Below are positions 3,071 to 54,744 of a stretch of 64,000 nucleotides of DNA, one piece after another. The notes under the pieces were generated by a model, which had not been told where the DNA came from, did not search any database, and saw only the letters and a list, made by a program, of their open reading frames with translations. Source of the stretch: Amphiscolops sp. MND2022 (lineage: Eukaryota). Every line of letters begins with the position of its first letter. Positions within the stretch are counted from its first letter, which is position 1. Location: assembly GCA_964187785.1 (NCBI GenBank), contig OZ076409.1, positions 28,522,001 to 28,586,000 on the forward strand, written 5' to 3'. The translations under genes were made by a program, and so were the position numbers.

Positions 3071-3374
3071 TTGGGTTACTCTGAAAACCTGCTAAATTGT
3101 AAATAAATATCGATAAATACCTGAAAAATTAGTGACGCAGCATGAAAATATTGAGCATGAAAACTTCTCTAAGCAGCTCCCAAAAACCTAATAAATTAGC
3201 CTTGCAACCTATAAAAGCATGTAAAACTTTCGTGCACTTTCAACTAGGGCCGTGTTTCCTTGAATTCGTATCAAAGTATTCGTTCAACTTTGTTTCTGTT
3301 GATGTTGCGAGAAAATCGCACAACTTCTTTTCTGTTTTCGAATGAGCTTCAGTCATGTCGTTAGTGTACCCTTG

Positions 3375-4108
3375 TGTAAGGACAAGCTCTCACCATTGTC
3401 GCCGTAACCATAAGAGTTAGAGGAACACATGATATGGGTATTTGCCCGGGACAGGCGCCCATGACCATGAGCTCATTTTGCCTCTTTCGGGTAAAAACTG
3501 TCCCGTCAGAGGAGGATTCCGCTTCTTGTGAAGTGCTCGCCGGCCTGATCCAGTCTGTAATTGCTATCAGTAGTGCGCATTACGCTTTTTCTTCGAAACC
3601 AACACTTAGACAGCCTTTAAAAAATGCAAGTGGTGGAGAGGAAAAATCAAATTTTTTCGAAGTTACACAGGAGATCGAAATGAGTAGCTCACGAGCTGTT
3701 ACAACAAGAAAATACGAAAATTACTACATAATTAGCACTTTTGAGGCAGCAATTAGCCGGGGACACAAGCACGGATGCTTGGTCAAGCTAATTGACTCAT
3801 TTTTGGTAATCACAGCGTCTTGTAACGCTTCGCTGAAGAAAGCACTGGTTAGAACAAAGTTCAGTCCGTTTTGGCAGAAATTTGAGTCTTTTTCTGACAG
3901 TGGCCGTGTTTTTCTGCAATCTTCTCGTTTTTTTGGGGTCTCTCTCGAGTCTCTTGCTCAAATCCTCTTCAATTCCGTGGACAGGTACTTGAATAAAGAC
4001 ACGCTACCGTCTGGCGGAATATGACTCTTTAGTAGAGGAGATATAGTCCCTTGAACGAAATTTTCATCGAAATTTTCGAAATCGTACACTCGATAGGTAA
4101 TCGCTACA
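3375..4108 (-). mobile_element. Solo LTR of the element-B family (734 bp), TSD TTG
   Basis: Near-identical to 30256-30991 with a few substitutions and indels. Termini TGT...ACA. Flanks are c-TTG (3372-3374) and TTG-c (4109-4111). Confidence 0.95.
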
Positions 4109-6499
4109 TTGCTGTAATAGTTTCTTAACACGCAATTCCAAAAGAATTTGACCAATAGTTGAATTGATCAGAACAGAGAATACTAGTATTGGCTCGTGGC
4201 ATGGAAACTTTATAGAAATAGTTGAAAACAGCACACAAACAAGAGATCTCCCCTCTCAATCAAGAGTTTCATATTCTGTTGGTTTCGGAATTGTCCCACC
4301 ATTTCCAGATTTGCAAGAAAAAATTGTGTATGTCTAACCTCTGTCTTGTCAATAGAGTTAAAAGGGATTTTTGCTGCTGTAAATGCACAAATTGTTTGAA
4401 TAATAGTTGAAATATTCTGAAGTCGGGACGATGCTGTCGCTGAAAGGGTAGTCGTAACAGTTGTTTGTTTCTTCTCTTTTATATTTTCTTTATATCTTTT
4501 TTGCATTTTTGTATGTTCTCCTGAAATAAGATACGTTTTTAGTGTTCCTTGACGACTGCGATCGCGCAAACTTTACAAAAATTCCCCATCTGCATAAAAA
4601 TCTTTATTTCAGGGTTGGCCAGCTCTTCCTGAAACTGCATAAATACAATTTTTTTCTCTCATTTTAGATTGGTTTTTGGAAATTTCAGGCGTGGAAATTG
4701 ACAGAATTGTTTATAAACACGTAACCCGTATGGGATTCCCATATTAAAGGTCACTATATTTTTTGTTCCCCAAAGTTCCATAAAACAAAAAACTGACAGA
4801 CAACTTTTCTCCCGCTGGGGTCGAATTGTCTAGAACCCTAAATTTGGTTGGAAGGAGCGGTAGACACCTTTTGGTTGGTATCAAAAGGAGCGGAAGACTT
4901 TGCAACAACATATCCTGGGGTCGGAATTTCTATCAGGAAGAATAGGAGCAATTAAAACTTCAATCAGATAAATATGGTAAAAATGTCGGTGATAAGTGCA
5001 AAAAAGCAATTGATTGTTAAAAAGTGATTGTTAAACAAGTGATTGTTAAAAAAACAATCGCCGGCCACGAAAAATTCTACAAATAACTCTCAATAAATTT
5101 GTACTGTGATTCTTCCTTCAATTTCGTAATATTCAATTTGTGTTCTTTGTGTTGTGTTGTGTTATTTTAAAATATATTTTGATTTGTTCATTGTAAAGTA
5201 TGGTTACATGACACTTCGTCCTATACACTTTCAACCTATGCAGATCTTAGGCGTTATATCTTATTCCGTCTTCCAGTTATGCTAATTCCCTATCTTAAAA
5301 TGTTGAGTTTTAGACGTTATTCTTTAAGGCGTTATTCCTGAAACCTTTTTAGAAAAATTACATTTTAGAAATATTTTCAAACCCAGTGTTTGGACCATGT
5401 CATCTATTTCCCCCCAGGTACACCTTGTTGGGAATATCCCCCAACACGAAAGCACATTTTGTTCTTCAATAGAAATATTTCACTAAAAAGAGAATATTAA
5501 ACGAATGTAAATACTTACAACTGTTTGTCTCTACAACTGTTTGGACACTTCAGGTAAAAAAATTACCACAATTGTATGATAATATTGTCCAAAAGCAGAA
5601 ATCACGTTTGGAACAAGCTAAAATTGTATAAAAAGGCGCCTCTTTGAGCGCAAATTTTGTTTGCTATAAAATTTAATGAGCAACGTTCAACTAACAGTCA
5701 ATGTAATGGATAGGATTATGTCGACATCAATTATTTTATTGGACTAAAATTTCAACGCAAACGATGTCGACATAATGGTATTTGAACCTCCTGTCTTATT
5801 CCCCCCGCCGCAGTTTGGGGGGGGGAATAGATGACATGGTCCGAAAAGACAATTGATTGAATTGATTGATTTGGACAAATGAGTTTTGATGAGATCAAAT
5901 TGATTGCGATTTTATCAAAATGTGGAAACCGGCTATTTTCACGGCTTCCGTAATATGTAGGACTCATTTGTATGGATTATACTTTTGGTCGAGTTTTCAA
6001 ATTGCTTGGTTTGAAATCTGCCGACGGCCAGTAGCTGCAAGTCTCTCAGATTTTCGAAAGAGAATTGCGTTTAAAAAAATCAAAAAAATTTGAGTTTAGA
6101 TTTTTATCTATTCTTTAGGGTCATTTTGAAGCTCTTTTCCAACAGGATAATGCAATTGACTCTGAAAAAGCCTTCTGTTTACTGCGTTTGATTGCTCTTG
6201 AGTGTTTTACTTCTTCTAACACACGAAAATTTACAAAAAATTCTGAGATAATCTTCTCCTTGAAAAGAACAGTTTTCCTTCAGAGGCGTACGTACTGCGT
6301 GGCTTGACAAGTCGTCTGGAGCTTTCGGACCGCCTAATGCACGTATAAACTTCGACTTTTCCGACTTTTTTGAAATTGAGACATTTTTCGAAAACAAATC
6401 GGCAAATACCTCCACGAAATCCAACTGCAAAGCAACTGCAATGATCTTTGAACTTTTCTACTTTTTACCCCTCGGAACGTTGCGCAAAAACGTTTGAAA

Positions 6500-7014
6500 G
6501 TTTCACACTTTTTTGACTCACTTATGTCGTTTCGATTAATATAAACAACTGCAATTGTCTCTACAAAAAAGATACTACATAACCAGCTTGTTGTTCTTCG
6601 TGTCTTTTGAGATTTTAAAACCTAAACACTTTCGAAAAACGTACTTAATTTGCCTGAAATTCTACAAAAGTTCGAAATTTTTGGATTTTTCGACTATCAA
6701 TTGCAATCCTTGATGAACGTTTCCAACGTTCTAACCGCGAAACGTCTCGAAAATTTGACGAAACCTGCATAACAAAGACAAAATTGGAACTTTAGAATTT
6801 TTGTCATTTTTGGCCGCATTGTGAGGCATGTTTTCAGTGAAAAACTGCCTTTGTTGCTTCACAAATCCTCCTGGACAACGAATAGTTTCCTTGTTGAATG
6901 TTTTCATCATTCAAAGCCACCAAGTTTTTCACCAAAAGTTGCATGAAAATGTTTATATCTCAAACTTCAAACTTTCGGAACTTTCGTCTATTTCGTTCTC
7001 AATATGAGATATTG
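6500..7014 (-). repeat. Degenerate ~180-bp tandem host repeat, interrupted by element A; resumes at 26124-~26380
   Basis: The reverse complement aligns with 49680-49900, e.g. aacttggtggctttgaatgatgaaaa...ttcgttgtccaggagg vs aactttgtggattggaacgttgaaaa...tttgttgaccagtagg. The outer boundary is approximate. Confidence 0.7.
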
Positions 7015-7723
7015 TGTAACGTCCGGCTAGCGGCGCACATCTAGGAAGAGGGACAATGCCTAGGGTGCTTAAACAGGAGACCGTTGTCTTACTACACTCC
7101 TAAACACTAGTTTTTGATCCCAAAATGGTCTCCATGGGGGACTTTTCTAACGTCTAAGGAGACTCCTCTAATTAGAGCTCCGAGGCGACGTGCCGGCACT
7201 CTCAAAGTCCGGACACGCCCCACAAGCCTGTAAAAACGTATCCTAAGGTTTTAGCGCATTCCTGCTATCTCCTACATACTTCCGAGGTCCAAAAAGGTGT
7301 TTATCCGAAAAATGTCATTTCGACGGTTATGGGCATGAAGTGCCGACCTAGAAGGTCAGGCACGGGAAAAATAACAAAATGCATTAATATAAATTAACAA
7401 AATAAAGGGGGACAGGCCCCGAGTGGAAATACAGTTACTGTTTGCAGGTTTTCGGGGATCCAGTCATGTAGTTCTAGAATGGCTCTGCTTTCCCAGGGAT
7501 GACATGGCACCGGGTAGCGTTCTTCGAATTCTATCCCGTGGATCTTCATGTCGTCAGTCGTCTACTTCTTTTTCATCTCCTGTCGTTCTTCTCGTTCACG
7601 TGTTCTCTCTTTCATTTTTGTGGGCTTTAAGGACCTGCCAGGTCGGCCATTTTGATTCGCACCTTTTTTGGTTCTTGATCGAATTTTTCAACGAAAACTT
7701 GGTGTTGACTGGTGGACGTTACA
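7015..7723 (-). repeat. Element A 3' LTR (709 bp)
   Basis: TGTAACGTCC...GGACGTTACA 10-bp terminal inverted repeat. No differences from 25415-26123 seen by eye. Confidence 0.97.
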
Positions 7724-7758
7724 TCCTCCCCGGGCCGTAGTTTGTCGTCCTCGGCAAA
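7724..7758 (-). promoter_or_regulatory. Element A short polypurine tract plus upstream hairpin
   Basis: The minus strand reads CCCGGGGAGGA against the LTR. Stem-loop TTTGCCG-AGGA-CGACAAA at 7741-7758. Element B has the same arrangement. Confidence 0.7.
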
Positions 7759-8309
7759 CGAGAGGATGCTCGCACCCAAAGGGTACTCTGAGATTCACAG
7801 AAAAGGTCTTATATTAAAGCTATGTTGATTTCACATTACTATTCTTTTCGCTTTACCACTGCATGTCTAGCACCCTAAAGCCATCGAATTCAAAAAGCAC
7901 TGATTTTTAAGTTAAAAACTATACAGTCGGATTTTTTCTTTAAAAAGGGTTTTTTCACTAACTACTCAGTTCAAGTTAAAATTTCTTTTTCTAAAATTGG
8001 GCCCCTGCGCGGCCAAGTGAGTAACAACAACTTTTGGGCTTGGTAGAAGTTTCAAATTCAAATCAAAACGGGAGGGCACCGAACCGGGACCCACCCAGAG
8101 GATGTAACTATATTGCATTGTTGCAATGGTAGTAAAGTAAAATATACATCAAACAAAACTCAGGAATTAAGGTTTATTGCACTGAAAGTTTTCAGCACCA
8201 GTAAGATGGTGTAGCACAACTAAAATCAAGAATTGGCATCAGTACATTGATGATAGGGTCCTTTATGCTCAATTGTGTTCTAACAGTCTTGGGGGTCCAG
8301 AGGACTCCT

Positions 8310-11300
8310 TTATTCCAACAGTTGGTCCTGTGGGGCTTCTTGGACTGAGGTGTTGCCCATGGCATCCACCGTATTCTGATATTCTTCGTCTATGGTCAGC
8401 AAATTATTGAGCTCTGACTCTATGTCCGCTGCCTCCAAGTTCGAGATATTGGTCTCCACTTCGTCTCTTACAGGAGTAGTGGCATCAGAGAACGTGAAGT
8501 TATTGTCAGTCATAGGTTCCTCTGATGGTGGCATGACGCCTGGCACATCATCTTGTGCCCCTTCCACCAATATTTCATTGGAGTCTTGACTTATGTGGGG
8601 TGTGGGAAAGACGGTGCGAGAGCTGCCAGAGGCAGCTTCGCTCAAATCGCTAATCCCTGGGATAGCTTCGACTGATTCCAAGTTCGGCAGGCCGTCCGCT
8701 AATTCTTGATGGCCATATTGGGTGAACAGCTGCCTGAACGTTCGTATTCCCCTAGCATATTCTTCGCCCACGGCTCGAGTGCGTTCTCGCTGGAGACCAT
8801 GCAGACGCACGAATATCTCTAGTGCCATACGCGGGTTGCTGGGAACGTCAGTGTTCACGGGCAAATCTTTCTTGCTTGGTTCTTTTGCTACTGTCGGAAT
8901 AGTTGTTGGCAGCTGTTGGAAGGTCTGGTGTATAGCGAGGTCCACGAGCTCTGGCTGGGCCCAACATGTAATGGTATTCAAGATTCTGGCGGTATGCTCA
9001 CGGGGTTCTGTTCTTGTACAATATATTCTGGAAGTGTCACACGCATAGGGATACAATAACCTAGTAGGTTCTTCTCCTTTTCGACGACCACCCAATCTTT
9101 GGATAATTGTTCTCAAGATACGCAGGACAACTGGCACGTCCCACCCTTCAAATGTCGCCACTGCTCCATTATTTGGATCAATGGGGGTATGTAGCCAAAC
9201 TACCGGATGGATTTCCATTGGCAAAGGGAGCGAGCTACGTGCTCTCGCCTTGATCAAGGTGAGATAGTTGTGCTCCACTTGTTGGCGGTCTTTGATTACG
9301 GTGTACGCCATGGGAGGTCGCAAGTTGGCAAAGCTGTGTATCACTGATTGATAGGTGGGACCCTGAAGGGGCCCATCAGAGGTCACGAAGTGTAGAATCG
9401 AGAGGGATGGGCTCACCGCCGCCACTCGCAGGGCCTGCGTTGGATGGCGCAGTGCCATAACTGCGCCGAAGATAGGCCAGACTACCGGAGCAATGAGGGG
9501 TATTAGGTCCTCTGTTTCCACGAGCATCAACGTTGCAACTTGTGTAGGGAACAGGAACCCAGGAAGTTGATTGGGGTCTCGGTTAATAGCTGGGCACTCA
9601 TCCAGAGGATGCATAACGCCTGAGACATTGACCCAGGTGGAATAAATCCACACTAGAAGTGCTTGAATGTTTAAGTCCAGTTGCGCCTTTAATTTCAAGG
9701 AACCCGCTGGGTCCAGAGTTTCAATGAGCGCAGATATCCAACCTCTTTGATTCTGCGAGAAGACTAGGAAGCTGAACAGGGCTGAGCCTCCCTTGTTGAG
9801 CACGAACTTTTGTATGAGGGCCGACGGTCCTCTGTACATCATGGTCAACCCCACGGCCATCAGATACGCTAGTAGTTCACTAACGGTCGCTCTTTCCATA
9901 GCCTCCATGTAAAGTCGCATTCGCTGCTCATCCAGGCCGTACTCGGCTTTTACTAAGGAAGGAAGCCAGAAGGGAGAGATGTTGTGGAGAAATACGGGAA
10001 ATGTTATGCCCAGTCGGTCCGCGACTTGGCCCAGAGGTTCTCGTAGTTGATCGTGCCATGTTTGGTACGTGTGTGTCGGCTCTTGAATATTCCTTTGTAC
10101 AATGTCTTGAGCCAGTATCAACAGCATGGCCAATGTGGGTGATCTTTGCCCAGGTTCAGCATCCAATGATATTTGTGCTATGGGGAAGATGGAGGAATTC
10201 TTTCTATCACCCTGAATCGTTTCGGTTTCTTTCATTAGATTCGTGAGTTCCTTGTGAAACTTGGGTTCATGTGTTTTCTCGTCTATGGTCGATTCGTCCC
10301 GGCGTTCAAACCAGAGGTTATCCACCAGGTTGTTGCGCTCACTTTCATTTGGATCGTTCACGATTCGGTCTCCACGCTCGTTCAATGATCGACGAGCCAT
10401 TTCCATCCCGTAGTCGAATGCTGTTGCTTCATCTACTACCATTTGGGAGTTTCCGCGGTAACCGACGTATGATTGAAGGGCCTTTGAGACTTCAGCAATG
10501 AAGGCTGGGTATGAGGCTTCACAAGGGCGCCAGCTATTATTGCTGATGCGTAAATTGGGGGCCACAATGTAGAAAGCCAGATCTCTTGCGTACGCTGCCT
10601 CCATTACTAGGTACAAGAATTGCTGAAGGGTCCGGGGAAGGTGCACGTAGCCTGGAGGTGACATAAATACCGTTCCAGTGATAGCTTTCCTTCTGCGCAT
10701 AGTTTGGGCAATATTCGCCATTGTCTCCACGTAGTTGGTCACTTCGTCGGTGACGAACCCCTCAGTAAACCTTTCGTGGTCTGGTCGGAAAAATTCCAGG
10801 GTCCCTCGCAGAGCGAGGTGATCTATCACATTTGAATATACCAGCAACGGAGGTAATGGGATGGTCTCTGTTCCCGCTTGGGTGAATACTTTGTCGGTCA
10901 CCTCTGCCATTTCGTTCAGTGTTGTACAGGGCATGTTCATTATTCTGACATCCATGAGGGTATTGTGGGAGTTGAATGAAGACTTCATCGTCGAGTCGAC
11001 GAAGAAGGCTATTCTGGTTTTCTGCAAAAGGTCCTTTCCCATGGGTAGGATTGTAATGGGGTCCCTCGCATAGTTTTTAGTTCGCAAGCGATCTTCGTCG
11101 AAGCGGCCAGGGCACTGTCGGAGGAAGTTGTCAGGAACACGCATGTATGTTGAGTTTACTCTCTCCAATTCTGCTCGCATGCGGTTGAACCATGGGGGGC
11201 ATCCGTCTCGAGTGAACACTGGTTTCTTGACGGGACGATTGTAGAGTACTCCCACTGTGGCTTTTTCTATTTTCTGCCTTGTGGCGAGGTCCCCAGTTCC

Positions 11301-12404: not shown

Positions 12405-12734
12405 TGGAAACGATGATAAAGGAATGTTTAGCACCGAAGATTGTGATGGCAAGACTGATTTGGCGTGATAAGTATGGGGGCCGCGCAGAGGCGAGGCAAC
12501 AGGACAAAACTGAAAAACAGGTCACAGTTGGAGATAAGACATCACATAGACGGGTGGGCAGTTAAACTTTTTAGGACGAACACACAAACACAAGGTTAAA
12601 AAGTTTCAGTGGTTAGTACTAAAATTTGCGCTCGTCGGCGCGGCTTTGTTAAAATTTTAAGGTGCTTCGAATTAACTAAAGGCAGTGCAAAAGGCCAGTG
12701 GCCTGATATGCCAAGTAGAGGGCGAGACGTGCTC

Positions 12735-25380: not shown

Positions 25381-25398
25381 ATCCCTCTGTGGTCGCCA
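25381..25398 (-). promoter_or_regulatory. Element A primer-binding site, tRNA-Arg-like
   Basis: Minus strand TGGCGACCACAGAGGGAT, 18 nt, starting TGG (complement of CCA). Identical in element B. Resembles the 3' end of metazoan tRNA-Arg(TCG); the isoacceptor call is from memory. Confidence 0.88.
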
Positions 25399-25414
25399 TA
25401 AAAACTATTCCAGA

Positions 25415-28931: not shown

Positions 28932-28944
28932 ATGATTTTTCATA

Positions 28945-30991: not shown

Positions 30992-31029
30992 TACACTCCC
31001 CGGGGTCTAGTCTTGACGTCCCCGTCAAG
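30992..31029 (-). promoter_or_regulatory. Element B PPT-like tract plus hairpin
   Basis: Minus strand CCCCGGGGAGTGTA against the LTR. Perfect 7-bp stem CTTGACG-GGGA-CGTCAAG at 31012-31029. Confidence 0.7.
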
Positions 31030-32012
31030 TGTGGGTTGGCGTCATTGAGTCTGTACCCAGAGTCATCTGTGTCCCACTGAGAAGATAGAGTGCACATCAA
31101 GTAGCGTGGACGGTTTGTTGGGACATCGTCAAGTTGGCCTCGTGGAAGTGTTTTTGACCCAGCGTTGCTGCATTTTGATCAAATCAATACAACTTTGTAT
31201 ACAAATCTTATACGGCAAGGTCATTGCTTTTCGTAGCCTGTCGTGAGCAATTCAGGCGTTAAAATTTCTTTTCGGCCATTCAAAAAAATTTTTATTTGCC
31301 GTTAGTGTTAAAACTTGTTTTAAGGCCAACGACCATCACATGACTGTTCGAAACATATTTTCCGAAGCTCGGGAGCTTCGGACTGCTTGGCGTTTGATAA
31401 AAGTTCTTTTGGTAAGCAGTTGCCATAAAATCAGTTAATAAGTACGATCAATTTAAAATTTTTTTTTTTTTTTTTTTTTGCGAGATTTATTCTCGATCCT
31501 ATCAGGCAGCTCAAGAAAAACAATGGTCGAGGTTCATCAATCTTTTTATTCTATTCATTTCTCATCTCTCCCTCCTTGTTTCCTTTTCCTTTATCTTTTC
31601 TTTTTATCTTTTTCTACAGTGGCAACAGTGTAAACGATAACTAGCAACTAAAAGGGTGTAATAGCACCGAAAATTTCGAGCACGGAGTGCGCACAGCGCA
31701 TCCACATACAGCATAAAGTAGCATGAAAAAGCACTAACTGCAAACACAAATTGCAAATTGAATATTGCATCTAACTAGGGCAAGGCAAAGACACAGTTTC
31801 ATGGTTGGGTTGCCGGTCCCAAAACGGAATAACAAAGAGGATGAAGCCCGGGGGCTTCATCTTCTTTTGGAGATTTTTACCCATGACCAATTGGCATTTC
31901 CATAATCGAAGCTTAGCAACAATAGAGATTGAAACCATGAAATTTCGGAAAATTTTATCTAGCACAAGACTATCGAAGTTGGAAATTAAATGACGACAAA
32001 GTTAGTTCTGTT

Positions 32013-36380: not shown

Positions 36381-36602
36381 GACGACAGTTCTGAAAGAGC
36401 GTAGGTCGATTGTAGCACACTTCATAATAGGGTAACACCATAGGTCATTTAAGGGTAATACCAGGGAAAGTAATAGAATGTCACACATTAACATTAAAGA
36501 AAAAGATGACGTAATAGTCTCAAATAAACTTCGTGTCGATTCACTAAACTTAACCGAGCGGACAAAAAACGAAAAACAAAAAAAAGCGGACAAACGAAAA
36601 CT

Positions 36603-39600: not shown

Positions 39601-42600
39601 TGCATCCTCGTTGGCGTTCCATGGCGGGCAAACCATTTCTGCAACAACAACTTTGAAGTGGTTGCTGCATCATACTCATCATGGTTACATGGCACAGCTT
39701 CTGCGAGCTTAGAGAAATGATCGATAATAACCAATATCCCTGTGTTGCCATCATCAGAGGGACAAATTTTCATGTGGTCATATTGGACTAGCTCGTTGAA
39801 ATAACCGCTTTGGATATTTTTCAAGTGAAAGCGTACATCACCAGGCTTGTCGCGTACTTGTTGACAAGTGATACATTGACTAACGTATTGTCCAATGGTG
39901 CGGCGGATGCCTGGCCAAGTGTGTCGCTCTTGAATTCTGGCCAAGACTTTCGCGATGCCCTGATGTCCCATCGCGTCGTGGGCCTTGAATAGTATCTCAT
40001 GCTGATACAATTGTGGCATCACTATCATACAGGGGCGTTCATGCAAAGCTCTTTGAGTTTTGGAGTATTTTACACACAAAATCCCGTTGGCGTTTATCAA
40101 TAGGAGGTTCTTCTTCTGTTTGTGGTAGTTTTTGGCGAAGGTGCGCACATTTTCCGGAAAGACGTCATTATCTATTGATTCTTGCATTACCAATTTCTTG
40201 ATGGCCAATATATGGACGTCACGGTTTTGTGCTAGTAGTAGATCCTTCAGTCCATGGACTGTGTTAGCATGTTCATGCAGTTCCATTGATATGCTGTTTA
40301 CCACAAACGCGGCTTGTCTTACGTGCTCTGGTGCAGTGCTAGTTGCTTGCTTTTCCATTAGTGGGTAAGTGGTTCTTGATGGTACGTTAGCAGCATGCGT
40401 GGGGAGTAGATAGTCTCGTTGATATTCCTCGGTCAGTTCTAACCAATCCTCAGGATATTCTGGATAAAGTTCGGCGGGCAGTGTCAATTCTGGTTTTGGC
40501 AATGTAGGTAGAGGCGCTCTCATGGCTTCCTCGCGTATGGTCGCACTTCGTTTGCTTCCTCCGCTCTTTCGCTTGGGAGCGGCAACTATGGTCTCGGGTG
40601 AACTTTGGCTACCCAACCTTCGCAAGTGTGCGGGCAATTCTGGGTGATTTGGTATCACACGTCCGTGGATGTCGAACCATGGGGCTAGCGGGAGTTTGTT
40701 ATATTCCTCCTGTGACAGGAAATCCCATTTGTCTGCAATTGCGGGTAAGCCTTTTAGTTGCTTTTCGTGTTTTTTGTAATCATTTGTTCGTTTGCTAAGA
40801 CCATCAGCATTTCGATGTTGCGTTCTGGGTCGATGCTCAATGCTGAAGTGATATTTTTCAAGAGCCATAATCCATCGACCGATAATCGCCTGATCCATCG
40901 AATATGTTTTTAGCCAAGACAGAGCCTGATTGTCTACTCTCAGTGTGAACTTTCGTGGACAGAGATAACTGTGGTTTTTCAAGATGAAATAGTATGCAGC
41001 ATACATTTCCAATTTTGGGGCTCCATACTTTGCTTGCGTGGCAGTTAACTTTTTGCTTCCGAATACAATCGGTCGCAGTTTGCGACTCTCAGGTGGTCCT
41101 TGCCATTGGTGCAAAATACCCGATATAGCTACACCACTAGCATCTGTGTCGAGAACAAATTCGCCTTCAGTGTCAGGTTGCGCCAGAGCGGTGGCTTCCA
41201 TTAGTGCCACTTTGATGCTGTTGAAGGCTCGCTGTTGCTCCTCCCCCCATAAAAATGAAGACGCTCCTCCTGTTATCGCGTGTAAAGGGGCAACTAGTTT
41301 TGCATGCCACGGGATGAAATCTCGATAGTAGTTGGCAAAACCCAAGAAACTCTGCAATTCAGTCTTGGTTCGCGGGATATCCCATTCTTTCAGCTTGGTG
41401 ACAGCTTTTGGATCTGGCTTGATACCATCTGCGGATACGACCCGGCCCAAATATTTGATCTCCGATTTCATGAAGTCACATTTGGAGACTCTCATTTTGA
41501 ACCCGGCTTCACGCAGACATTGGAATACTTCGCGTAGTCTGTCCATGTGATCCTCGATGGTCTCGGTAGCAATCACAATGTCATCGATGTAGGCCATAAC
41601 CATACTACCTTCACGATTCACTATTCTTTGTAGCGCTCGCGCTATTGCCCGTTGAAATGTTGCCGATGCGTTACACATACCAAAAGGCATACGCCGCCAC
41701 TCAAATAACCCAAGTTCACAAGCGAAGGCAGTCTTTTGGCGATCGGCTTTTCGGACAGGAATTTGCCAGAATGCCCACGCCAAGTCAATACTAGTATAGA
41801 TTTTGGCTTTGCCCAATCTGGATAGACTTTCATCGATACGTGGTAAGGGATAAGCGTCTTTGATGGTCACTTCATTAAGTGGTCGAAAGTCACAACAGAA
41901 TCGCAATTCACCACTCTTCTTTTTGACCATGACAATTCCACTCGCCCAAGGGGATAGGGAAGGTTGTATCATTCCCAAAGCTAGCAAGTCACGAACTTCT
42001 TGGTTAGCACGTTCTGCCTTGTCAGGCGACATTCGTCTTGCACCTTCGCGGTGAGGTACAGCCCCTGGCTCTACTTCCACCGGGTGCTTAGCGATTTTAC
42101 ACTTACCAATGTCGGCTTTGAATTTCATAAACAAATCATCAAATTCATTCAAAAGTTTACTGAGCGTGTCGCTGGCGGTCGATCCCCACAAACCGCGCAC
42201 TTCGTCGAGTTGTGCTTCCGGGCCCGGTATCGGAGCCATTAACGCCGGATCGGTTCGTTTTTTTACTTCGCGCTCGGACAAGCCTAGTTCTGACGGTTCG
42301 GTAGAGGACAAAAACTCAAATTCAGATGAAGAACTATATTCAGAAGAAGAATCAAGGTTCATCTGTTCGTAAACTTTACAAACATAATTTGCATTTGACT
42401 GCTGAGTTTCACTTGATTGTCCGGGGACAATCTGGGGGATGGCCTTATGAACCATTGTCACGGGTACCGCGGTTCCTAAAAGGGTGCCCTTTTTTATCCG
42501 CTGCACGTTGCTGGTAAGATTCCCTAAACTGACGTAAAGGAACCCAGTCTCCCCCACGGTCGCCACGGTGTCCTCTAAAAAGATGGCGTTTTTTAACATT

Positions 42601-45600
42601 CGGTTAGGTGTTTGGAAATTGATTAGCACGGTTCGAAATATGAAAGGTTCTAAGTTGTCTACAAGCAGTTTAGCGCGTAGTATTGCGCGTTCAAAGGGTT
42701 GCAACACTACGTCCTGTGCAATCGCTACCGACGAATTGAGTGATTCGTCACTTACTTGTGTGTGGGCATGGTACCACACTGGTTCAGACGGAGCTCGGAC
42801 AATGACCTTCATCGCGGTTAGATCCACTAAGACTTGATAAGCTCTTAGGAAGTTTCTGCCCAGGAGGAAGTCTTCCACTCCCATGGCGTCGTCGACTACC
42901 ACGAAGTTAGTTTCCAGTTCGTAGCCTCCCAATTGGAACTTGACCTTCTCTGCTAGACCAAAAGTTTTGATCGTCTTCCCATTCGCGGCATACAAGTCAA
43001 TACCATAAGGTCGTAAAAGTGTCCCGGTGCGCACAGCGACTCGATTATAGGCTGAGAAGGTGAGGATGGACACTCCTGATCCAGTGTCTATCAGACCACG
43101 TAATGGCACGGGAGCAGCATCGGGAACCACGAACGAAACTACGAGCGACGCACGCTCATCGATTCTCGCTTCACCAGTTGGTTCTTGAGTATCAATGTTA
43201 TAGCAGCGCAGCTCCTGCGGTCCCAAGCAGATCCCAGGAGGGAATGCGTCAGTAATGATGGTGGCACCAAAACGCACGTCAACACCATCTATGCAAACTT
43301 TGACTGGAATCGGAGAATAGGCATGATACGTCGAAGTAACACCTTTTACCTGCCATTCTTCCGGTTGGGGCAGGGTCAATTGTCGGCAATTCTGGTTTGC
43401 GGCTATCTCGTCTATCAGGGCGTCTATGGTGAGTTCTGGGCGGGTTTCCCTCTCAATCGCCAATAGTAATCGGATAGACATGATGGTACGTCCCGAGGGA
43501 TCAAAAGTAGTTGGCTCCGGGTTCGTCTGGATTTGAATCTTGCCACATGTGACGGTAAGGGGCGTTGCCACATGAGCGGTTTCGGCAGGACGAAGCATGA
43601 GCACCATTTCACTGTCACTCATTGTTTGAGAAGCAGGTGGCTGTTCAGCCCAGAGGCTGTAGGCCAAATCCTCATGTACTGGAACATTTTGGCATTGTGA
43701 TGCAGAGTGTTCAGTCATGCCACAATTTACACAGAATACGGGGCCAGAACATGCAGAGGCCACATTATTTTCACATAAGTTTACTCGTTCTTCAGGTGCA
43801 GCGCGAGCCGCTGGCTTCCTTGCTAGGTCTCGATTTGGGCATTCCCTTGCAAGGTGACCTGGTAGTCCACAGTTGAAGCATGCTCCTTGGGGAACCACTC
43901 TCGCTGGTTGCTGTTGTGCAGGAGCTTGTTTCACTGATGCAGGGGCTGGTGGAGCCATTTGGGGTTTAGCCTCTCGTTGTCCTTGGTTAGGAGGTAGTAC
44001 GTTTTGCGGTAGGCCTGGTGCTGGGTGAACCAATTTTCCTGGCACGAAAGGATGAGCCCTCGATCTCATTCCATACCTTGGGTCGTAAGGTTTTGATGTG
44101 TTTGGGCGATGCCGTTGCAATTGTCTCGTGGTGAACCTTAGGGATTCTACAGTTGGTGGTTCGGTCAGATATGCCTCTGCAGCGTATACCACGGCCAACT
44201 CTTGTCGCAGCGTCGGATCATTGACGCCATCTATAAAGCGTTGCAGGATCTCATAACGACGTGTAGTGATGGGCTCATCGGGGAAACCTTGGGTGCGCAG
44301 ACCTTCTAATGCGTCCAGGAATTGCATCCAATCTTCTTTTTCCTGTTGGACACGAGACATGAAGGTTTGCCTTACGTGCATGCGATTTCCACCGGTTCCA
44401 AATCTGCTGGCCAAGAGAGAGAATACCTTGTCGGGCTCGTCTCGTTCAGGTTCAGATTTGTTGATAATATAATTTCTCGCCTCTCCTTCCAGGTGGTCAA
44501 TGATAGCCCAGGCTCTATCGATTTTTGGGGATTTTGCATGCACCCTTTCTAGAAATCGCTTCATCACTGGGAGCCATCCATCGACAGAACCATCTTTAGT
44601 GCCTTTGTATACCGTAGGGCGCACCCTAGTTTGGTCTCGATTAGCAATCAGCGGTGCTAGTTCCTTGGACATGGCTTTAGATATTGCCTCGGTAAACCTG
44701 AGTTGCTCTGGTGATATAGGCGCTTCTTCGCTGATAGCTGGTGGCGGGATACTGCTGCCTCGCGTTGAATTGACAGAGTCATCGGTGTTCTCGGGGAGAG
44801 TCACTTCTCGGCGTCGAGTGCTGCTAGCGCATGGGTTGCCCGAGGGTAATTCGTCGTTCGCGGTTTGGAATTCTGCAGCTGATTCTCCCAAAGTTGCATT
44901 TGCTGTTTGGAAGGTGCTAGTGACTTCGGTTAGTACGTTTGCGCGTGTGGGCTCTCGCAGGTCGCTAATACCCATGCTTGAAGTGTCGATAGTTATCACC
45001 TCGCATGTTGGTTCTCTCTTGTGAGTTTTGGTTATGGGTGGAATATTTTTTGTTGATACCGCAGATGGGATAAATTTCGTCGATGTTGACGCAGCTTCTC
45101 CATTTGAGATCAGAGTTTGTGGCAAGGGCGCGTACCTAGCCAAGTGTTGTTTAGAGCCAGACGGGTTTGTCGAAATCGTCACACTCTCTTTTGGTTTGAG
45201 GGAGACGCTTTTCATGGGTTTTGGCGGTGACATATCAGTGTCTTGCAGTAATTCTTTGATAGTGTTGCTTGCTGGTGCGGGTTGAGGTTGGATATTTTTC
45301 AACATGGTGCCCATTGCTTGTATCTGTGAACATACCTCTTGCAGTTGAGCTTCCATGCGCACCTCTCTTTCGGTCACCATGTCTTTTATTTCGGCCATTC
45401 GATAACCCATGGCATCCATTCGAGCTGCCTGAATTTCATGTCCTTGCGCTTGTCGTTCAGTCGAGGTTCGCAGTTCAGTTTGTACGGCTTCTATCTCCTC
45501 CATTATTGACTGATGCTCTCTGTCGCACCTTGCTTTACGCTCGGACAGTTGTGAAACAGCTTGCTTCACGCCTATCTGGGCATCTAACAGAGCTTTGCGC

Positions 45601-46370
45601 GCTTTCGCTGCTTCATGTACAGCTCGATATGCTGAAGATCGGGCAGATGCAGCTTTTGATGAAGGTGAGGATGAGCGCGAGTCGCCATGAGGTCCTGTAG
45701 TGCCAGTCTGTGCCAGTAAGGCTGGAGGCCGTATTTGCTTACCCTTCCCAGATGCTCGGGGGGCCGTAGCTTCTTGAAGACGTGTCCTGGCATAATTCAT
45801 ACCCCCGACATAAGACATTTGTTGCAATATCTCTGCCGTGTTTGCAGTACTCTCGCTGGCCACGCTGGGAGCTTTGAGTTGTCCAGTGGCATTCAAGCAA
45901 CTCATTTCAGTTTCTTCCTCAGCGTTTGTCCTGTTGGAGTTGGGCCATGTCCCTGCTTCATCAGTACCGAAAGGTGTGACGGCTACTTTGGTGAGTTCTT
46001 GTAACCATTTGGACGTGTGCGCCTGACTTCCTGTTTCGTCTGCTGAACCTCCGATGTCATCGGTAGTCTTAGTAACCGGCTTGGCTTGATACTCCTCCGA
46101 TGCGTCGTCTGACATAGGGTCTGAAAAATCGGGTTCCATAACGAAACTGTCATCAGTTGGCCAATCTTCCTCCTTGGGGTCTGAGGTCAAGTCTGATATT
46201 GCACTGAGGTTTGTCTCGCACCCCGTTGGGTCTGGTGTTTTTGATGCTTCAGTGCATCGCGAGACGTCCTTCCTCCCCCTTTTGGAATGATTAGAGCGTC
46301 GCTGGGTGTTCGTGCGGCTTAATGTTCTCGTCATAGAATTCCAAAGGTTACGCAGACTGTTGGCTTTCAT
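36603..46370 (-). CDS. gag-pol: Element B single-ORF Gag-Pol (3,255 aa), same domain series as A
   Basis: CFNCGLPGHLAREC, CVNCGMTEHSASQC, LIDTGS, YIDD (~41580-41591), LDTDAS, HDAMGH...CITC, SDNA, VERQN, WRGPHKV and C-terminal macro-like domains. Confidence 0.97.
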   Translation of the reverse strand: MKANSLRNLWNSMTRTLSRTNTQRRSNHSKRGRKDVSRCTEASKTPDPTGCETNLSAISDLTSDPKEEDWPTDDSFVMEPDFSDPMSDDASEEYQAKPVTKTTDDIGGSADETGSQAHTSKWLQELTKVAVTPFGTDEAGTWPNSNRTNAEEETEMSCLNATGQLKAPSVASESTANTAEILQQMSYVGGMNYARTRLQEATAPRASGKGKQIRPPALLAQTGTTGPHGDSRSSSPSSKAASARSSAYRAVHEAAKARKALLDAQIGVKQAVSQLSERKARCDREHQSIMEEIEAVQTELRTSTERQAQGHEIQAARMDAMGYRMAEIKDMVTEREVRMEAQLQEVCSQIQAMGTMLKNIQPQPAPASNTIKELLQDTDMSPPKPMKSVSLKPKESVTISTNPSGSKQHLARYAPLPQTLISNGEAASTSTKFIPSAVSTKNIPPITKTHKREPTCEVITIDTSSMGISDLREPTRANVLTEVTSTFQTANATLGESAAEFQTANDELPSGNPCASSTRRREVTLPENTDDSVNSTRGSSIPPPAISEEAPISPEQLRFTEAISKAMSKELAPLIANRDQTRVRPTVYKGTKDGSVDGWLPVMKRFLERVHAKSPKIDRAWAIIDHLEGEARNYIINKSEPERDEPDKVFSLLASRFGTGGNRMHVRQTFMSRVQQEKEDWMQFLDALEGLRTQGFPDEPITTRRYEILQRFIDGVNDPTLRQELAVVYAAEAYLTEPPTVESLRFTTRQLQRHRPNTSKPYDPRYGMRSRAHPFVPGKLVHPAPGLPQNVLPPNQGQREAKPQMAPPAPASVKQAPAQQQPARVVPQGACFNCGLPGHLARECPNRDLARKPAARAAPEERVNLCENNVASACSGPVFCVNCGMTEHSASQCQNVPVHEDLAYSLWAEQPPASQTMSDSEMVLMLRPAETAHVATPLTVTCGKIQIQTNPEPTTFDPSGRTIMSIRLLLAIERETRPELTIDALIDEIAANQNCRQLTLPQPEEWQVKGVTSTYHAYSPIPVKVCIDGVDVRFGATIITDAFPPGICLGPQELRCYNIDTQEPTGEARIDERASLVVSFVVPDAAPVPLRGLIDTGSGVSILTFSAYNRVAVRTGTLLRPYGIDLYAANGKTIKTFGLAEKVKFQLGGYELETNFVVVDDAMGVEDFLLGRNFLRAYQVLVDLTAMKVIVRAPSEPVWYHAHTQVSDESLNSSVAIAQDVVLQPFERAILRAKLLVDNLEPFIFRTVLINFQTPNRMLKNAIFLEDTVATVGETGFLYVSLGNLTSNVQRIKKGTLLGTAVPVTMVHKAIPQIVPGQSSETQQSNANYVCKVYEQMNLDSSSEYSSSSEFEFLSSTEPSELGLSEREVKKRTDPALMAPIPGPEAQLDEVRGLWGSTASDTLSKLLNEFDDLFMKFKADIGKCKIAKHPVEVEPGAVPHREGARRMSPDKAERANQEVRDLLALGMIQPSLSPWASGIVMVKKKSGELRFCCDFRPLNEVTIKDAYPLPRIDESLSRLGKAKIYTSIDLAWAFWQIPVRKADRQKTAFACELGLFEWRRMPFGMCNASATFQRAIARALQRIVNREGSMVMAYIDDIVIATETIEDHMDRLREVFQCLREAGFKMRVSKCDFMKSEIKYLGRVVSADGIKPDPKAVTKLKEWDIPRTKTELQSFLGFANYYRDFIPWHAKLVAPLHAITGGASSFLWGEEQQRAFNSIKVALMEATALAQPDTEGEFVLDTDASGVAISGILHQWQGPPESRKLRPIVFGSKKLTATQAKYGAPKLEMYAAYYFILKNHSYLCPRKFTLRVDNQALSWLKTYSMDQAIIGRWIMALEKYHFSIEHRPRTQHRNADGLSKRTNDYKKHEKQLKGLPAIADKWDFLSQEEYNKLPLAPWFDIHGRVIPNHPELPAHLRRLGSQSSPETIVAAPKRKSGGSKRSATIREEAMRAPLPTLPKPELTLPAELYPEYPEDWLELTEEYQRDYLLPTHAANVPSRTTYPLMEKQATSTAPEHVRQAAFVVNSISMELHEHANTVHGLKDLLLAQNRDVHILAIKKLVMQESIDNDVFPENVRTFAKNYHKQKKNLLLINANGILCVKYSKTQRALHERPCMIVMPQLYQHEILFKAHDAMGHQGIAKVLARIQERHTWPGIRRTIGQYVSQCITCQQVRDKPGDVRFHLKNIQSGYFNELVQYDHMKICPSDDGNTGILVIIDHFSKLAEAVPCNHDEYDAATTSKLLLQKWFARHGTPTRMQSDNAPNFTAAVSAEFMKAAQVTKVTSTAGHPRTQGLVERQNRTLLTLLRVFCSRRMRDWDQYLDEVMGAYNSTRHATTGFSPYMLTRGMEKAIPLTFLYPEFATQSFESHEAYVEHVLARQQEIHDLVRRNTHQAQQRQKLKYDRAIRAKAYEVGEPVWVFCRYIPQKGSPKLMRAWRGPHKVARVLQEGRVYILDTGQKVHFERLKPHHGGPTEWAAVPAHNGEVAIIMDPDPEQSHEEVRDDASQPSYRAEEPISEASDASLPSRQRHWMDTRLRTHMRAGGSRLHYQQFGYSSTESDDERSDVLLSSAQANPDESVTLSSQVDEPVPIPEMPISPLPAMEALFSENEAVPDALDVAPNPNIHVPTGSTATSLTGTSAPLLTNPSLTDVLSNFPIWPLIDNNDLNPTLDDDGADAPTTNNEKGSIPPTTNPINNDAATTTKLPNAPRGRGPRGRPPGRARPRASLPRGHQRRGAIRGARKRGRPRGRPPRTTHARPNTPTHIRNTPSMDTDSSAPSAAVTSDQAAPPESTNARYGLRRNRIPRYRCGTCGLRNCECNYMIHADFPIKSQGVLLALEQEKSLPSGMVDRLVIRAEKTYTGLQRSETPYPVDYILSKMKDSTIAKAPCPRFKEWTYDLVGLEFTLPITVPPLPTNIAFGPFNYEREPIQMIRCIPADLLYDKYNVTAKPGDVYQPTSNWWLLVTAKQTSDLVHPTNLNTCLESLRTMASPDKITCFHTIDLYRGKIKFEWWLELIIAVLSNFSRIRFLDEWTHSFPSPVSLQSALHALDTWSRANIDNQSLPRSVWQDLGAIKGLLPNACDDALSKDPGRELVYHGAAKPQLVDYVQYANTDFLQTPHHIVLCCPANLETNSAALRYVIREHGADAIFQLRPEVGNIVTLPTSLIGGHPQTIHLLITRATPRCPMLADILFGCLDHLKTLLERLEAIEVHFAIIDPERPIRNLFDFYTCLMDVFADTPLTVVLHDRVYVSIASVASFP

Positions 46371-48908
46371 GATTTCGCACGTTTTGAAAAAGTCAAAATT
46401 CGATCTAGGGGTCGTACCGGCGTGAAACTTGCACAGCGCGTTGATACCGTGGTGTGGGGCCGGAAACCGAGCGTTTGGGGCTTACGGAATAGCTGATTCG
46501 CAAACAATTAGGTTTTTAGACAATTTTCGAGTTTTTTAAATTTCTTTGGAAATGACTAAGATCCCTCGAACGCAACGTCTATTCGTCGGAAACACTTGAA
46601 AATTGGCTACCTGACCTTGTGGTAGGTGTACTACACGATAGCAAAATCAAATCCAAGGTAGGGTTTTTATTTCAAGATTTAAGTTGATCCGGACGTTTGG
46701 TACCCTTAGTCATCAAGATACATCAATTTTCATGCTTATTTCGAGATTGTGCTCTACTGAAAAAAGCTAGCGGGCTCAAAATTTGCAAAACAACGTATTA
46801 TTTGGTACAAATGATAGAAATGAATTGCAATTCAACCTCGTTTTTCAATCAAGGTATTCGGATCACTCGGGAAAAATTTGAAAAATCACCCTCTATGCCC
46901 AGCTTTTTGAGTGGTACGTTTTTGTTATTTTTTCACCAAGTACCGGTTGGATTGACACGAAACTTTGTAATTACAGCCGATGAGTGTGTACAATGCCGGT
47001 GAGACCATCAAAAGAAAGCGCGGACGCTTATTTGAGGTTTCGACCTTACTTGGACAACACTCCTAAAGAAAACAATCTTAGGCTACTTTCTTCACAAATT
47101 GGCTAAGAGGGTCACCTCAAAAAGTGGTAGGGTTGAAAAAATGGGGTCTACGTGTTGCCCCACTGTTCGTAACACTAGGATAAACCCTCGAATAGATGTG
47201 CCCGTTAAGTACGAGGCACCGACAGTCCTTCAGTTTTGGATTATTTCGGTAGTTTTACAATTCTCTGAAGTTGAAACGTTAAAGAATTTTTCTCGATTTT
47301 GGTGAAAGTTGCGTTCACCAAATTTTCGGCACTAACGTTAATTTTGGTGGTGGTTACGAAAATGCAACCACTTTTTGGCTAGGGTTCAGGAATTAATGAC
47401 CCGACCCTAGCTCAGGGACAGTCCGGTTTTGTGGAAAATTGATCAGATTCAGTGCGTTTTTCCACTTTTCTCAGCACTGAATGGGAGTTTTTACACGCGG
47501 TTTTCACCACTACACGTTATTTTTTATAGAAAAACAGGAAATGAGAGCGCATAGGCTCCTAGCTAACAAAAACACAGAGTGCCCAGGGGGTTTTAATTGT
47601 GTACTCAGACACTCCTGAAACAGACTAAAAATCAACGTTTTTCAACTTTTCTCAGCACTGAAAAGGAATTTTTGCATGCGGTCTTCACTATAGATCGTTG
47701 GATTTACTAAATAAACTGAAAATAATAGCCCTGGGGCTATTCTAAGTGTAGAAGTGTTCGTCAATGGTTAAGTTGGGTTTCTTCTAAGGGTACTATAGAA
47801 AAACCTTAAAATCACAGTTTTCGTAACTTTTTTCAAGAAGTAGTGGTTATAATTACCAAAATGAGTATTGTTGGGTACCGGCAGGTGTACCCCAACCTAA
47901 TTGCAACCATACGGGGATATTTAAAAGCTTCCATACAAATTTCCCCATAAGTTCGGAGTGCTAAAATGTTCAATCTTTCAAAAACGGGTTTTCCTCCTCA
48001 CAAAACTTGTACTAAGTGCCTTTTTAGGCAACTTTGAGTACTTCATCGCGTTTTTTGCGAACTCGTTAGAGTCCTGAGCTACTTTTATTTAATTTCTGCA
48101 GGTGTGTGGCTAGCACCAAGAGCGCTCGCGCTCATGTAGGTGTTTCGCCTCAAAATGGCCCAATTTGGCACTTTTCGTCGAAAATACATGAGGAAACGCA
48201 CTTTTTTCGCACAAAACTGGTGCAGAAGCACACACTTAGTTACAGAAGGCTCGTAAAAACATTGGCAAATGGTCGTACACAAAATTTTGAGCAACCAAAA
48301 AAAAATTTTTCAACCTGACTCAAAAATATCATACAACCCGGACTGACGAGTCGTGTCTTCTCGTTCTTATTGCTCATCACCCAGAACAGCCAGAGACAAA
48401 CGGGTTGCATCATTAGACACGTCAGCATTTGTAGTACGTCTCCACCAAATTTCATTTCTCTAGATTGCCTATACGGGAAATGGGATCGGTGAGTCGTATA
48501 ACTCGTTTCGGCAGATTGTAAGATTCCTCTGAGCAAGGATCATCCTCTTCTCGATACTCACTTCATTGGTCATAAAAAGCTGAAAAAGGCTGGAAAACAC
48601 CTGTTAACACTTCTAGCAACCTCCCAGCGGCTTGCTAGACCAATTTTATGAATGACCCGTTAAGAGGGTAGACTGTTTCAATCGTTACCTGTCAACTACT
48701 AAAAAAGCATGAAAATCACAACATACAGCGCTTTTTTACAAGATTTACCTTTATCCACCGGGGTTGAAATCTTCAATGACACACACACAGGGTAAAAACG
48801 TGGAAAAACTCTGCTTCTCTCTTCTTTCCATCAGAGTCGGGTCGTACTTGGCGTCAATCACCAGAGGGTCGGCTATTTTAAAACCATTAAGGGAAGCACT
48901 TCGAAGCA

Positions 48909-48926
48909 ATCCCTCTGTGGTCGCCA
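48909..48926 (-). promoter_or_regulatory. Element B primer-binding site, tRNA-Arg-like
   Basis: TGGCGACCACAGAGGGAT, identical to element A although the flanks are unrelated. Confidence 0.88.
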
Positions 48927-48942
48927 AAAAATGATGTCTCTA

Positions 48943-49678
48943 TGTGACGACAAGCTCTCACCATTGTCGCCGTAACCATAAGAGTTAGAGGAACACATGA
49001 TATGGGTATTTGCCCGGGACAGGCGCCCATGACCATGAGCTCATTTTGCCTCTTTCGGGTAAAAACTGTCCCGTCAAAGGAGGATTCCGCTTCTTGTGAA
49101 GTGCTCGCCGGCCTGATCCAGTCTGTAATTGCTATCAGTAGTGCGCATTACGCTTTTTCTTCGAAATCAACACTTAGATAGCCTTTAAAAAATGCAAGTG
49201 GTGGAAAGGGAAAAATCAAGTTCCTTCGAAGTTACACAGGAGATTGAAATGAGTAGCTCACGAGCTGTTACAACAAGAAAATACGAAAATTACTACATAG
49301 TTAGCACTTTTGAGGCAGCAATTAGCCGGGGACACAAGCACGGATGCTTGGTCAAGCTAATTGACTCATTTTTGGTAATCACAGCGTCTTGTAACGCTTC
49401 GCTGAAGAAAGCACTGGTTAGAACAAAGTTCAGTCCGTTTTGGCAGAAATTTGAGTCTTTTTCTGATAGTGGCCGTGTTTTTCTGCAATCTTCTCGTTCG
49501 GGTGGGGGTCTCTTTCGAGTCTTTTGCTCAAATCCTCTTCAATTCCGTGGACAGGTACTTGAATAAAGACACGCTACCGTCTGGCGGAATATGACTCTTT
49601 AGTAGAGGAGATATAGTCCCTTGAACGAAATTTTCATCGAAATTTTCGAAATTGTACACTCGATAGGTAATCGCTACA
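48943..49678 (-). repeat. Element B 5' LTR (736 bp)
   Basis: Direct repeat of 30256-30991; followed by ATG. Confidence 0.97.
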
Positions 49679-50250
49679 ATGTCTCAAGGGACACCGAAAA
49701 GGACAAAAACTCAAATTTTTCCAATTTTCAAAAATTTTATGAATTTTTCACAACTTTGTGATGAACTTTGTGGATTGGAACGTTGAAAAGGGTCAAAAAG
49801 GTAAAAATTTGTTGACCAGTAGGCTTTTCTGAAGATGTAATTACAGTTTTTTAAGTGAACATGTCCCAAATTGACACCGAAAAAGACAAAAAACAAACAA
49901 AAACTTTTAATTTCAAAGTTTTTATTCAATTTTTTCCATATTTTCGACGGACTTTGTGAATTGGAACGCTGAAAAGGGTCAACAAGGAACAACAGGATTG
50001 TTCAGTATGCTTAGAAAAGAAATAAATGCAGTTTTTCAAACGGAAATTTACCAAATTGACATCGAAAAAAGAACAAAAGTTCGAAAATTTCCCGATTTTC
50101 ACTAATTTTGTTCATTGTTTGTCAAAATATCGATAGAGTTCGTGGACTAGAAAGTTGAAATGCCTAAGGCAAGGGCAAACTTGTTGTTTTGGTTACCTTT
50201 AGTCACGAGATGAGTTCATTTTGTAAAAGGAAAATGGCTTAAATTGGTGC
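49679..50250 (+). repeat. Degenerate ~180-bp tandem host repeat (right part)
   Basis: gaca(c/t)cgaaa at 49690, 49873 and 50058 (periods 183 and 185). The right boundary is approximate. Confidence 0.8.
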
Positions 50251-54716: not shown

Positions 54717-54719
54717 TTT

Positions 54720-54737: not shown

Positions 54738-54744
54738 AGGCACT

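Follow-up and report, generated by a model that had tools for sequence, protein, structure and literature searches.

Three-base-pair target-site duplications in a lineage of giant Gypsy-type retroelements from Amphiscolops sp.

Introduction

The stretch of DNA considered here, 64,000 nucleotides of contig OZ076409.1 from the Amphiscolops sp. MND2022 assembly GCA_964187785.1 (positions 28,522,001 to 28,586,000 of the forward strand; hereafter the window), houses four insertions of related long terminal repeat (LTR) retroelements, among them two full-length copies denoted A and B. All four possess TG...CA termini and are framed by a 3-bp target-site duplication. An earlier note on the window had called such a short duplication unusual, which it is when measured against the 4-6 bp of other LTR retrotransposons, but 3 bp has already been described for Troyka (Kojima 2025, PMC12440569), the one LTR group for which we found this length reported. 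We consider it very probable that the insertions belong to a lineage of giant Gypsy-type elements (15-19 kb) that has been active recently and whose integrase would carry out DDE strand transfer with a 3-nt stagger, followed by gap repair.

The insertions in the window

The features of the window are as follows (coordinates, strand, description):

3372..4111, minus: family-B LTR (3375-4108) with TTG on both sides; 731/734 positions identical to the upstream LTR
7012..26126, minus: element A (7015-26123), 19.1 kb, with TTG at 7012-7014 and 26124-26126
7015..7723, minus: 3' LTR of A, 709 bp, TG...CA
8310..12521, minus: second open reading frame (ORF2) of A, 1403 amino acids (aa) from stop to stop, no Pfam match
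12735..22505, minus: gag-pol of A with zinc knuckle, protease (PR), reverse transcriptase (RT), ribonuclease H (RH) and integrase (IN); a single in-frame stop near 20778
25381..25414, minus: 16-nt spacer (25399-25414) and 18-nt tRNA-Arg primer-binding site (25381-25398) of A
25415..26123, minus: 5' LTR of A, same sequence as the 3' LTR
28315..28934, plus: older solo LTR (28318-28931) of the related family C, in opposite orientation, ATG duplication
30253..49681, minus: element B (30256-49678), 19.4 kb, ATG duplication, situated in a dispersed host repeat
30256..30991, minus: 3' LTR of B, 736 bp, preceded in sense by a short purine tract
32013..36602, minus: ORF2 of B, 1529 aa from stop to stop
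36603..46481, minus: gag-pol of B, an open frame of 3292 aa with CX2CX4HX4C knuckle, PR, RT, RH, linker, IN and an extension
38982..40046, minus: integrase of B with HHCC, D-D-E and the GPY/F-type motif WRGPHK; Ty3/PFV-type fold (PFV, prototype foamy virus)
48909..48942, minus: 16-nt spacer (48927-48942) and primer-binding site (48909-48926) of B
48943..49678, minus: 5' LTR of B, same sequence as the 3' LTR
53559..61769, plus: BEL/Pao element (53564-61764), used as a control, with a 5-bp duplication, TCGGG, visible in the flanking sequence

Direct reading of the junctions bore out the duplications and termini exactly as the earlier note had given them: cTTG[TG 3375-4108 CA]TTGc, aTTG[7015-26123]TTGt, cATG[28318-28931]ATGa and aATG[30256-49678]ATGt, with a differing fourth base each time. 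Judged from the base composition of the flanks, four such matches would arise by chance with a probability of ~1e-7. All four 3-mers do conform to WTG (W, A or T) on the plus strand, and the 5-bp duplication ascribed to the BEL element is likewise present. A, B and the LTR at 3375 have their sense on the minus strand, whereas the solo LTR at 28318 is oriented along the plus strand, as judged from relatives, whose plus strand has the primer site behind the LTR. Read in the orientation of each element, the duplications are thus CAA, CAA, ATG and CAT. The LTR pairs of A (709/709) and B (736/736) are free of differences, which indicates that both insertions are very young.

Two LTRs had been taken for solo copies. 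This is correct for the one at 28318-28931, but the LTR at 3375 is not a plain solo LTR, because it recurs upstream, together with its flank, in association with family-B internal sequence. The segment 3075-4109 (1035 bp, comprising 300 bp of left flank and the LTR) has a counterpart 31.5 kb upstream that matches it at 99.7%; there, the same LTR continues into the interior of a family-B element. The region ahead of the window (G000:C1:28493605-28522000) contains this B copy with an identical 300-bp left flank; a truncated Gypsy element of a separate 15.9-kb family lies nested close to the 5' end of this copy and stops at window position 3074, directly after which the 300-bp flank and the LTR recur. 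The LTR at 3375 would hence be a solo-LTR allele, the product of a rearrangement or two alleles joined in the assembly, and its TTG duplication holds whichever way the segment is read.

Duplication length across the genome

The genome-wide tabulation of duplication lengths that the earlier note had proposed as a check was carried out on 85 insertions with a single script: 56 of family B, 18 of family A, 10 of family D (elements of 14.8-15.1 kb) and one of family C. After two unreadable D copies and two insertions with damaged ends had been set aside, 81 intact insertions from the four related families remained, and the flanking 3-mers are identical in 80 of them. Exact duplications of 4 and 6 bp are absent (0/81 for the 4-mer), and one of 5 bp lies within a TA run. 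Shuffling the pairing of flanks yielded on average 3.4 and at most 11 identical 3-mers.

The insertions were drawn from the top LTR matches and from position lists, and include 22 of 38 pairs that were first matched by eye; all 38 have 3-bp duplications and none was removed for a mismatch. Left out were two sets of LTR matches (8 and 3) covered at one end only and old family-C loci with eroded ends, and the sample is accordingly biased toward young copies. Outside the main count, family C (21 rows) provided four solo LTRs with TG/CA ends and 3 bp, one with an extrapolated left end and no duplication, and a further solo LTR in a T-run that reads 4 bp. The families are abundant, with 493 matches in the genome to one outer left-end pattern of B, and 137/137 RT candidates scored in the genome are 99-100% identical to B. 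Beyond this genome, the metagenome relatives (80 loci) included no element with both outer ends from which a duplication length could be read, no relatives were found in IMG/VR, and a sister lineage (query P0105) is absent from the 71 candidates scored in this genome.

Two further observations concern the copies themselves. A 4.8-kb relative at G000:C4:65.49 Mb (L222-L223) is internally deleted, retains LTRs and is flanked by a 3-bp ATA duplication. At G000:C4:921-943 kb and C4:27.99-28.02 Mb an identical right flank stands behind two LTR ends, at distances of 2 kb and 19.6 kb; these shared flanks are local duplications of insertion junctions.

Empty sites and control families in the same host

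Comparison with empty sites, also suggested in the earlier note and here based on paralogous repeat and LTR copies in the assembly, upheld the LTR boundaries. One B element is nested in the LTR of another B element, and its 3-mer is present once in 70/70 empty copies of that LTR. At the site of window element B, which lies in a dispersed repeat, the overlap of the two flanks in a gapped alignment is 3 in 28/29 paralogs and 4 in the remaining one. An overlap of 2 at the same site (27/29 paralogs in an ungapped alignment) was rejected, as it is an effect of a 1-bp indel that lies shortly after the single ATG. Candidate empty paralogs were available for 14 insertions, and 3 is the most frequent overlap in 11 of these; the other three comprise one damaged end (overlap 0) and two alignment artefacts (54 and 83). 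An insertion within a short tandem array has its duplication limited to TGT.

Other Gypsy elements of the same host behave differently. Ten elements from four other families exhibit eight exact 5-bp duplications, one of 5 bp with a mismatch and one that is unreadable; ten elements of the 15.9-kb family contribute nine exact 5-bp duplications and one case without a match. Across these five families, with the duplications read by eye from printed flanks, 17/20 are exactly 5 bp and 0/20 are 3 bp. Since control families in the same host give 5 bp, the 3-bp duplication is a property of the element and not of the host, and neither host repair nor the large size of the insertions accounts for it.

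The control elements have features of their own. The window begins with part of a gag-pol of the 15.9-kb Gypsy family (1-3074, minus strand). This family has LTRs of 1.7 kb and generates 5-bp duplications; it encodes a dUTPase-like domain, contains ORFs in antisense and is represented by young copies at other genome sites. Another control family (L291-L296) consists of 14-16-kb elements with 3.2-3.9-kb LTRs and a 5-bp duplication. The LTRs of the BEL element (53564-61764) are 94.5% identical and terminate in AA instead of CA. The interval from B to the BEL element contains a coding stretch for a rhodopsin-type G-protein-coupled receptor (52212-52796, minus strand).

Target-site preference

The earlier note had inferred that the integrase prefers WTG targets, and in this form the proposition did not survive: in element orientation WTG occurs at 6/80 and its complement CAW at 4/80 sites, four of these ten being supplied by the window itself, and outside the window WTG/CAW is found at 6/76 sites against ~5.6 expected by arithmetic from the background. 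What the sites share instead is a weaker, palindromic signature, A-N-N-[N-W-N]-N-N-T, symmetric about the middle base of the duplication. The middle base is A or T in 72/80 sites compared with a background of 63% (p 8e-8), and A at -3 and T at +3 occur in 48/80 and 49/80 sites, respectively (p ~1e-7).

Biases for T and A two to three bases outside the duplication have been reported for retroviral integrases, where those at -3 depend on the residue equivalent to PFV Ala188 and HIV-1 Ser119 (Serrao 2015, PMC4422553). The A(-3)/T(+3) bias of the elements described here may stem from an equivalent contact made by the core domain. PFV, which generates 4-bp duplications, resembles these elements in its integrase fold and in a target bias that is symmetric and lies three bases beyond the duplication; its preference for a central pyrimidine-purine (YR) step is not seen in them.

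A 16-nt spacer between the LTR and the primer-binding site

The primer-binding site of B starts with TGG and is complementary at 18/18 nt to the 3' end of the host tRNA-Arg(TCG) plus CCA. A pattern matching this tRNA occurs 255 times, and among the matches listed nearly all lie in one tandem array (G000:C9:57.54-57.58 Mb, L202-L204) with a spacing of ~173 bp; the tRNA encoded there is the predicted primer of A and B. In 61/63 junction reads (some junctions were counted twice) the primer site starts 16 nt past the CA of the LTR, the exceptions being one offset of 15 and one of 7, the latter in a metagenome relative (L343). The length of the spacer is constant across families A-D while its sequence differs, and in the control families the offset is 0-1 nt.

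Because the primer site starts 16 nt after the LTR, the standard scheme predicts a linear complementary DNA (cDNA) that would extend 16 bp beyond the integrated end. With tRNA-Arg(TCG) as primer, the U5 end would carry a surplus of 16 bp past the CA, and this extension would need to be taken off before or during integration. Retroviral integrases trim 2-3 nt from the cDNA end (PMC5329712), as opposed to the 16 predicted here.

Element architecture and encoded proteins

The elements measure 15-19 kb, with an internal part of 13-18 kb in full-length copies and LTRs of 614-736 bp, whose ends read TGT...ACA in families A-D. A and B follow the Gypsy gene order on the minus strand, with a second large ORF behind gag-pol on the same strand. 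The Gag knuckle, CFNCGLPGHLAREC, conforms to CX2CX4HX4C. A single Gypsy-type RH follows immediately after the RT, and the solved structure closest to the RT-RH portion is Ty3 Gag-Pol (E 3e-100); the linker between RH and IN in B is ~250 aa long. The integrase model (pLDDT 82) best matches chains of the Ty3 and PFV intasomes, and its WRGPHK motif aligns with YVGPFR of Ty3 and with GPF/GPY of relatives.

Two integrase features are common to A, B, a D-like protein and one unnamed relative: the loop before the first core helix is longer by two residues, and Ala replaces Gly two places after the second Asp. As causes of the 3-bp duplication these can serve as leads only, because Ty3, a 5-bp element, has a loop that falls short of theirs by only one residue, and the Ala is found in a 5-bp control as well.

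ORF2, a protein of 1400-1500 aa, is 32% identical between A and B over 755 aa. It has no Pfam match and no Foldseek match at E<=0.001; the best ESM Atlas value was 0.76, and a profile comparison with P0070 returned a probability of 0.6%. The middle part of ORF2 of B weakly resembles an SGNH/GDSL-hydrolase fold in its predicted structure (best Z 6.7, root-mean-square deviation 6.2, 160 aligned residues, from one structure search with a model of pLDDT 50.6). A GDSL match in a sister-lineage protein has an E value of 9e-7 and is below the Pfam cut-off, ORF2 itself has no clear GDS motif, and just six longer homologues were found. Behind the integrase of B there is a further extension of ~760 aa (36603-38900, minus strand) without a Pfam match at E<=1, two stretches of which resemble a macro domain by eye. 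In two distant relatives of 3700-3900 aa (P0282 and P0286) superfamily-1 helicase Pfam domains are fused to Pol.

Relationship to known retroelements

With the Metaviridae (Ty3-Gypsy) the elements share the PR-RT-RH-IN order, Gypsy-type RT and RH, integrase similarity (Ty3, PDB 7q5b), TG...CA LTRs, a tRNA primer site, a purine tract and the GPY/F motif. They depart from them in their size of 15-19 kb, in the primer site that is 16 nt rather than 0-1 nt (the control families) from the LTR, and in the duplication: the group makes 4-6 bp (PMC12440569), a typical trait and not a taxonomic criterion, and Ty3 itself makes 5 bp (bioRxiv 10.1101/2021.07.27.453949). The elements therefore work like Gypsy, but the 3-bp duplication makes them a variant and not a typical member. 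BEL/Pao and Copia do not come into consideration; in the window, BEL-type domains (DUF1759, Peptidase_A17) occur only in the neighbour at 53.6-61.8 kb, and IN follows RH in A and B. In comparison with Retroviridae, Loki and Odin, whose marks are a tether with a newly acquired RNase H and an env, A and B have one Gypsy-type RH adjoining the RT, and their ORF2 lacks a Pfam match.

In a FastTree phylogeny of 46 rows, derived from 49 proteins of which three lacked one of the two segments used, rooted at the midpoint and built without references from named clades, A, B, the D-like protein and the unnamed relative form a four-row clade with support of 100. This clade resides within a group of 25 rows made up of large, unnamed polyproteins (local support 100), near proteins from fish, amphioxus and frog. 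Two metagenome relatives have the same layout of a long gag-pol and a second ORF, there of 1800-1900 aa.

Vesta from a rotifer, with a GDSL ORF3 (PMC5408684), and Burro from a planarian, at >30 kb (PMC6431247), are parallels in build only: they share the large size, the additional same-strand ORF after pol and the predicted SGNH/GDSL-like domain, and differ in that ORF2 here has 1400-1500 aa and no clear GDS motif. The consulted portions of PMC5408684 provide no data on the target-site duplication or primer-binding site of Vesta, and those of the giant-element review PMC6431247 do not mention the term TSD. Our literature search came across no TG...CA Gypsy lineage with 3 bp, although Repbase and the Troyka supplements could contain such entries; an annelid survey (PMC8220671) gives pipeline-called duplications of 3 to 5 bp with no lineage assigned in the text consulted.

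How could a 3-bp duplication arise?

According to the reading that we favour, the DDE integrase would join both CA ends to target phosphates 3 nt apart, and ordinary gap repair of this stagger would then, as judged from retroviral biochemistry, yield the 3-bp duplication. The target would need a kink, or local melting, at its central A/T pair that exceeds what integrases generating 4-6 bp require. LTR elements overall span 3-6 bp and many members of IS3 produce 3 bp (Kojima and Bao 2023, PMC10045372), which implies that a 3-nt stagger is possible for this family of enzymes. The claim of the earlier note regarding the integrase thus stands in part: the short duplication is specific to the lineage and the 3-nt stagger is its best explanation, while the WTG preference attached to it falls away.

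Several points weigh against this reading. The stagger is inferred from repaired products; one intact A insertion lacks a match (ATA versus AAT in sense), as do the two insertions with damaged ends. Family B shows a clear A(-3)/T(+3) bias (35 and 36 of 55), family A a weaker one (8 and 9 of 16), and family D (n=8) displays only A/T at these positions. Central YR enrichment is absent, with 18/80 and 24/80 at the two central steps. The preference for central flexibility is reported to increase as duplications become shorter (PMC4422553), and the missing YR enrichment argues against a simple extension of that rule to 3 bp.

The alternative that fares best, although we regard it as improbable, posits an ordinary 5-nt (or 4-nt) stagger that a lineage-specific repair step shortens by one base on either side, for instance owing to a long cDNA overhang. 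The predicted 16-bp U5 extension is indeed unusual, the lack of central YR enrichment would fit, and position -3 of a 3-bp duplication corresponds to -2 of a 5-bp cut, which is also biased in PMC4422553. The lengths are, however, uniform, with not one insertion at exactly 4 bp; the long extension exists at one end only whereas the target signature is symmetric; and the same host leaves 5 bp in five other Gypsy families and in a BEL element. We know of no precedent for lineage-specific repair trimming of duplications.

A still slimmer chance is that the elements are aberrant members of Troyka, in which case the 3 bp would be inherited and already known. Troyka is counted among the Kuafuorterviruses, which are mostly 5-6 kb long (Gong and Han 2024, PMC11673190), and it has the same PR-RT-RH-IN order, the same 3-bp duplication and a restriction to aquatic animals (PMC12440569). 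By that published description, however, it differs from our elements in its termini (5'-CG...CG-3', CGCCA...TGGCG, versus TGT...ACA), its LTRs (100-400 bp versus 614-736 bp), its internal part (1.6-7.7 kb versus 13-18 kb), its zinc knuckle (CX2CX8-10HX4C versus CX2CX4HX4C) and an integrase described without the GPY/F motif; the second large ORF sets our elements apart as well. It is this description that separates the two, as the tree contains no Troyka sequence, which again tells against our reading; on the other side, the RT-RH portion fits best with Ty3 and the clade is placed among Gypsy-like proteins. Because the elements fail the five tested Troyka features and group with Gypsy-like proteins, the 3-bp stagger probably represents a second origin, independent of Troyka.

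That the ends were miscalled can practically be dismissed: the termini TGT...ACA formally permit GT...AC ends with a 5-bp A-NNN-T duplication, but this would require A at -1 and T at +1 everywhere, whereas both are present in only 9/80 sites, empty sites carry the 3-mer once and have lost nothing else, and longer duplications would have had no time to decay in the many copies with 100% identical LTRs. Equally negligible is the idea that AT-rich DNA produced the four matches, and the WTG motif with them, by coincidence, which is right for WTG but founders for the duplication on 80/81 matches as against a shuffled maximum of 11.

More tentatively, and with considerable doubt, the 3-nt stagger of these elements may be part of a wider picture: a clade without a name, widespread in aquatic animals and made up of giant Metaviridae-type elements, independent of Troyka, with the shortest stagger (3 nt) among TG...CA retroelements and with removal of 16 bp from the cDNA end in place of 2-3 nt.

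Implications

LTR finders that insist on duplications of 4-6 bp and expect the primer site near the LTR, as in default settings, would miss or mis-bound a family that has hundreds of LTR ends in this genome. A 3-bp duplication is, furthermore, no longer diagnostic for Troyka. The lineage constitutes a high-copy exception, with ordinary TG...CA ends and probably outside Troyka, to the 4-6-bp rule (PMC12440569), and 3 bp extends the 6-5-4-bp series, the retroviral range (PMC5329712, PMC4422553), that is used in arguments on target bending. Stagger length would thus be able to change inside the Gypsy radiation, and Amphiscolops offers a natural pair in one host, 3-bp and 5-bp integrases of the same fold, with which to ask what sets the distance between the two cuts.

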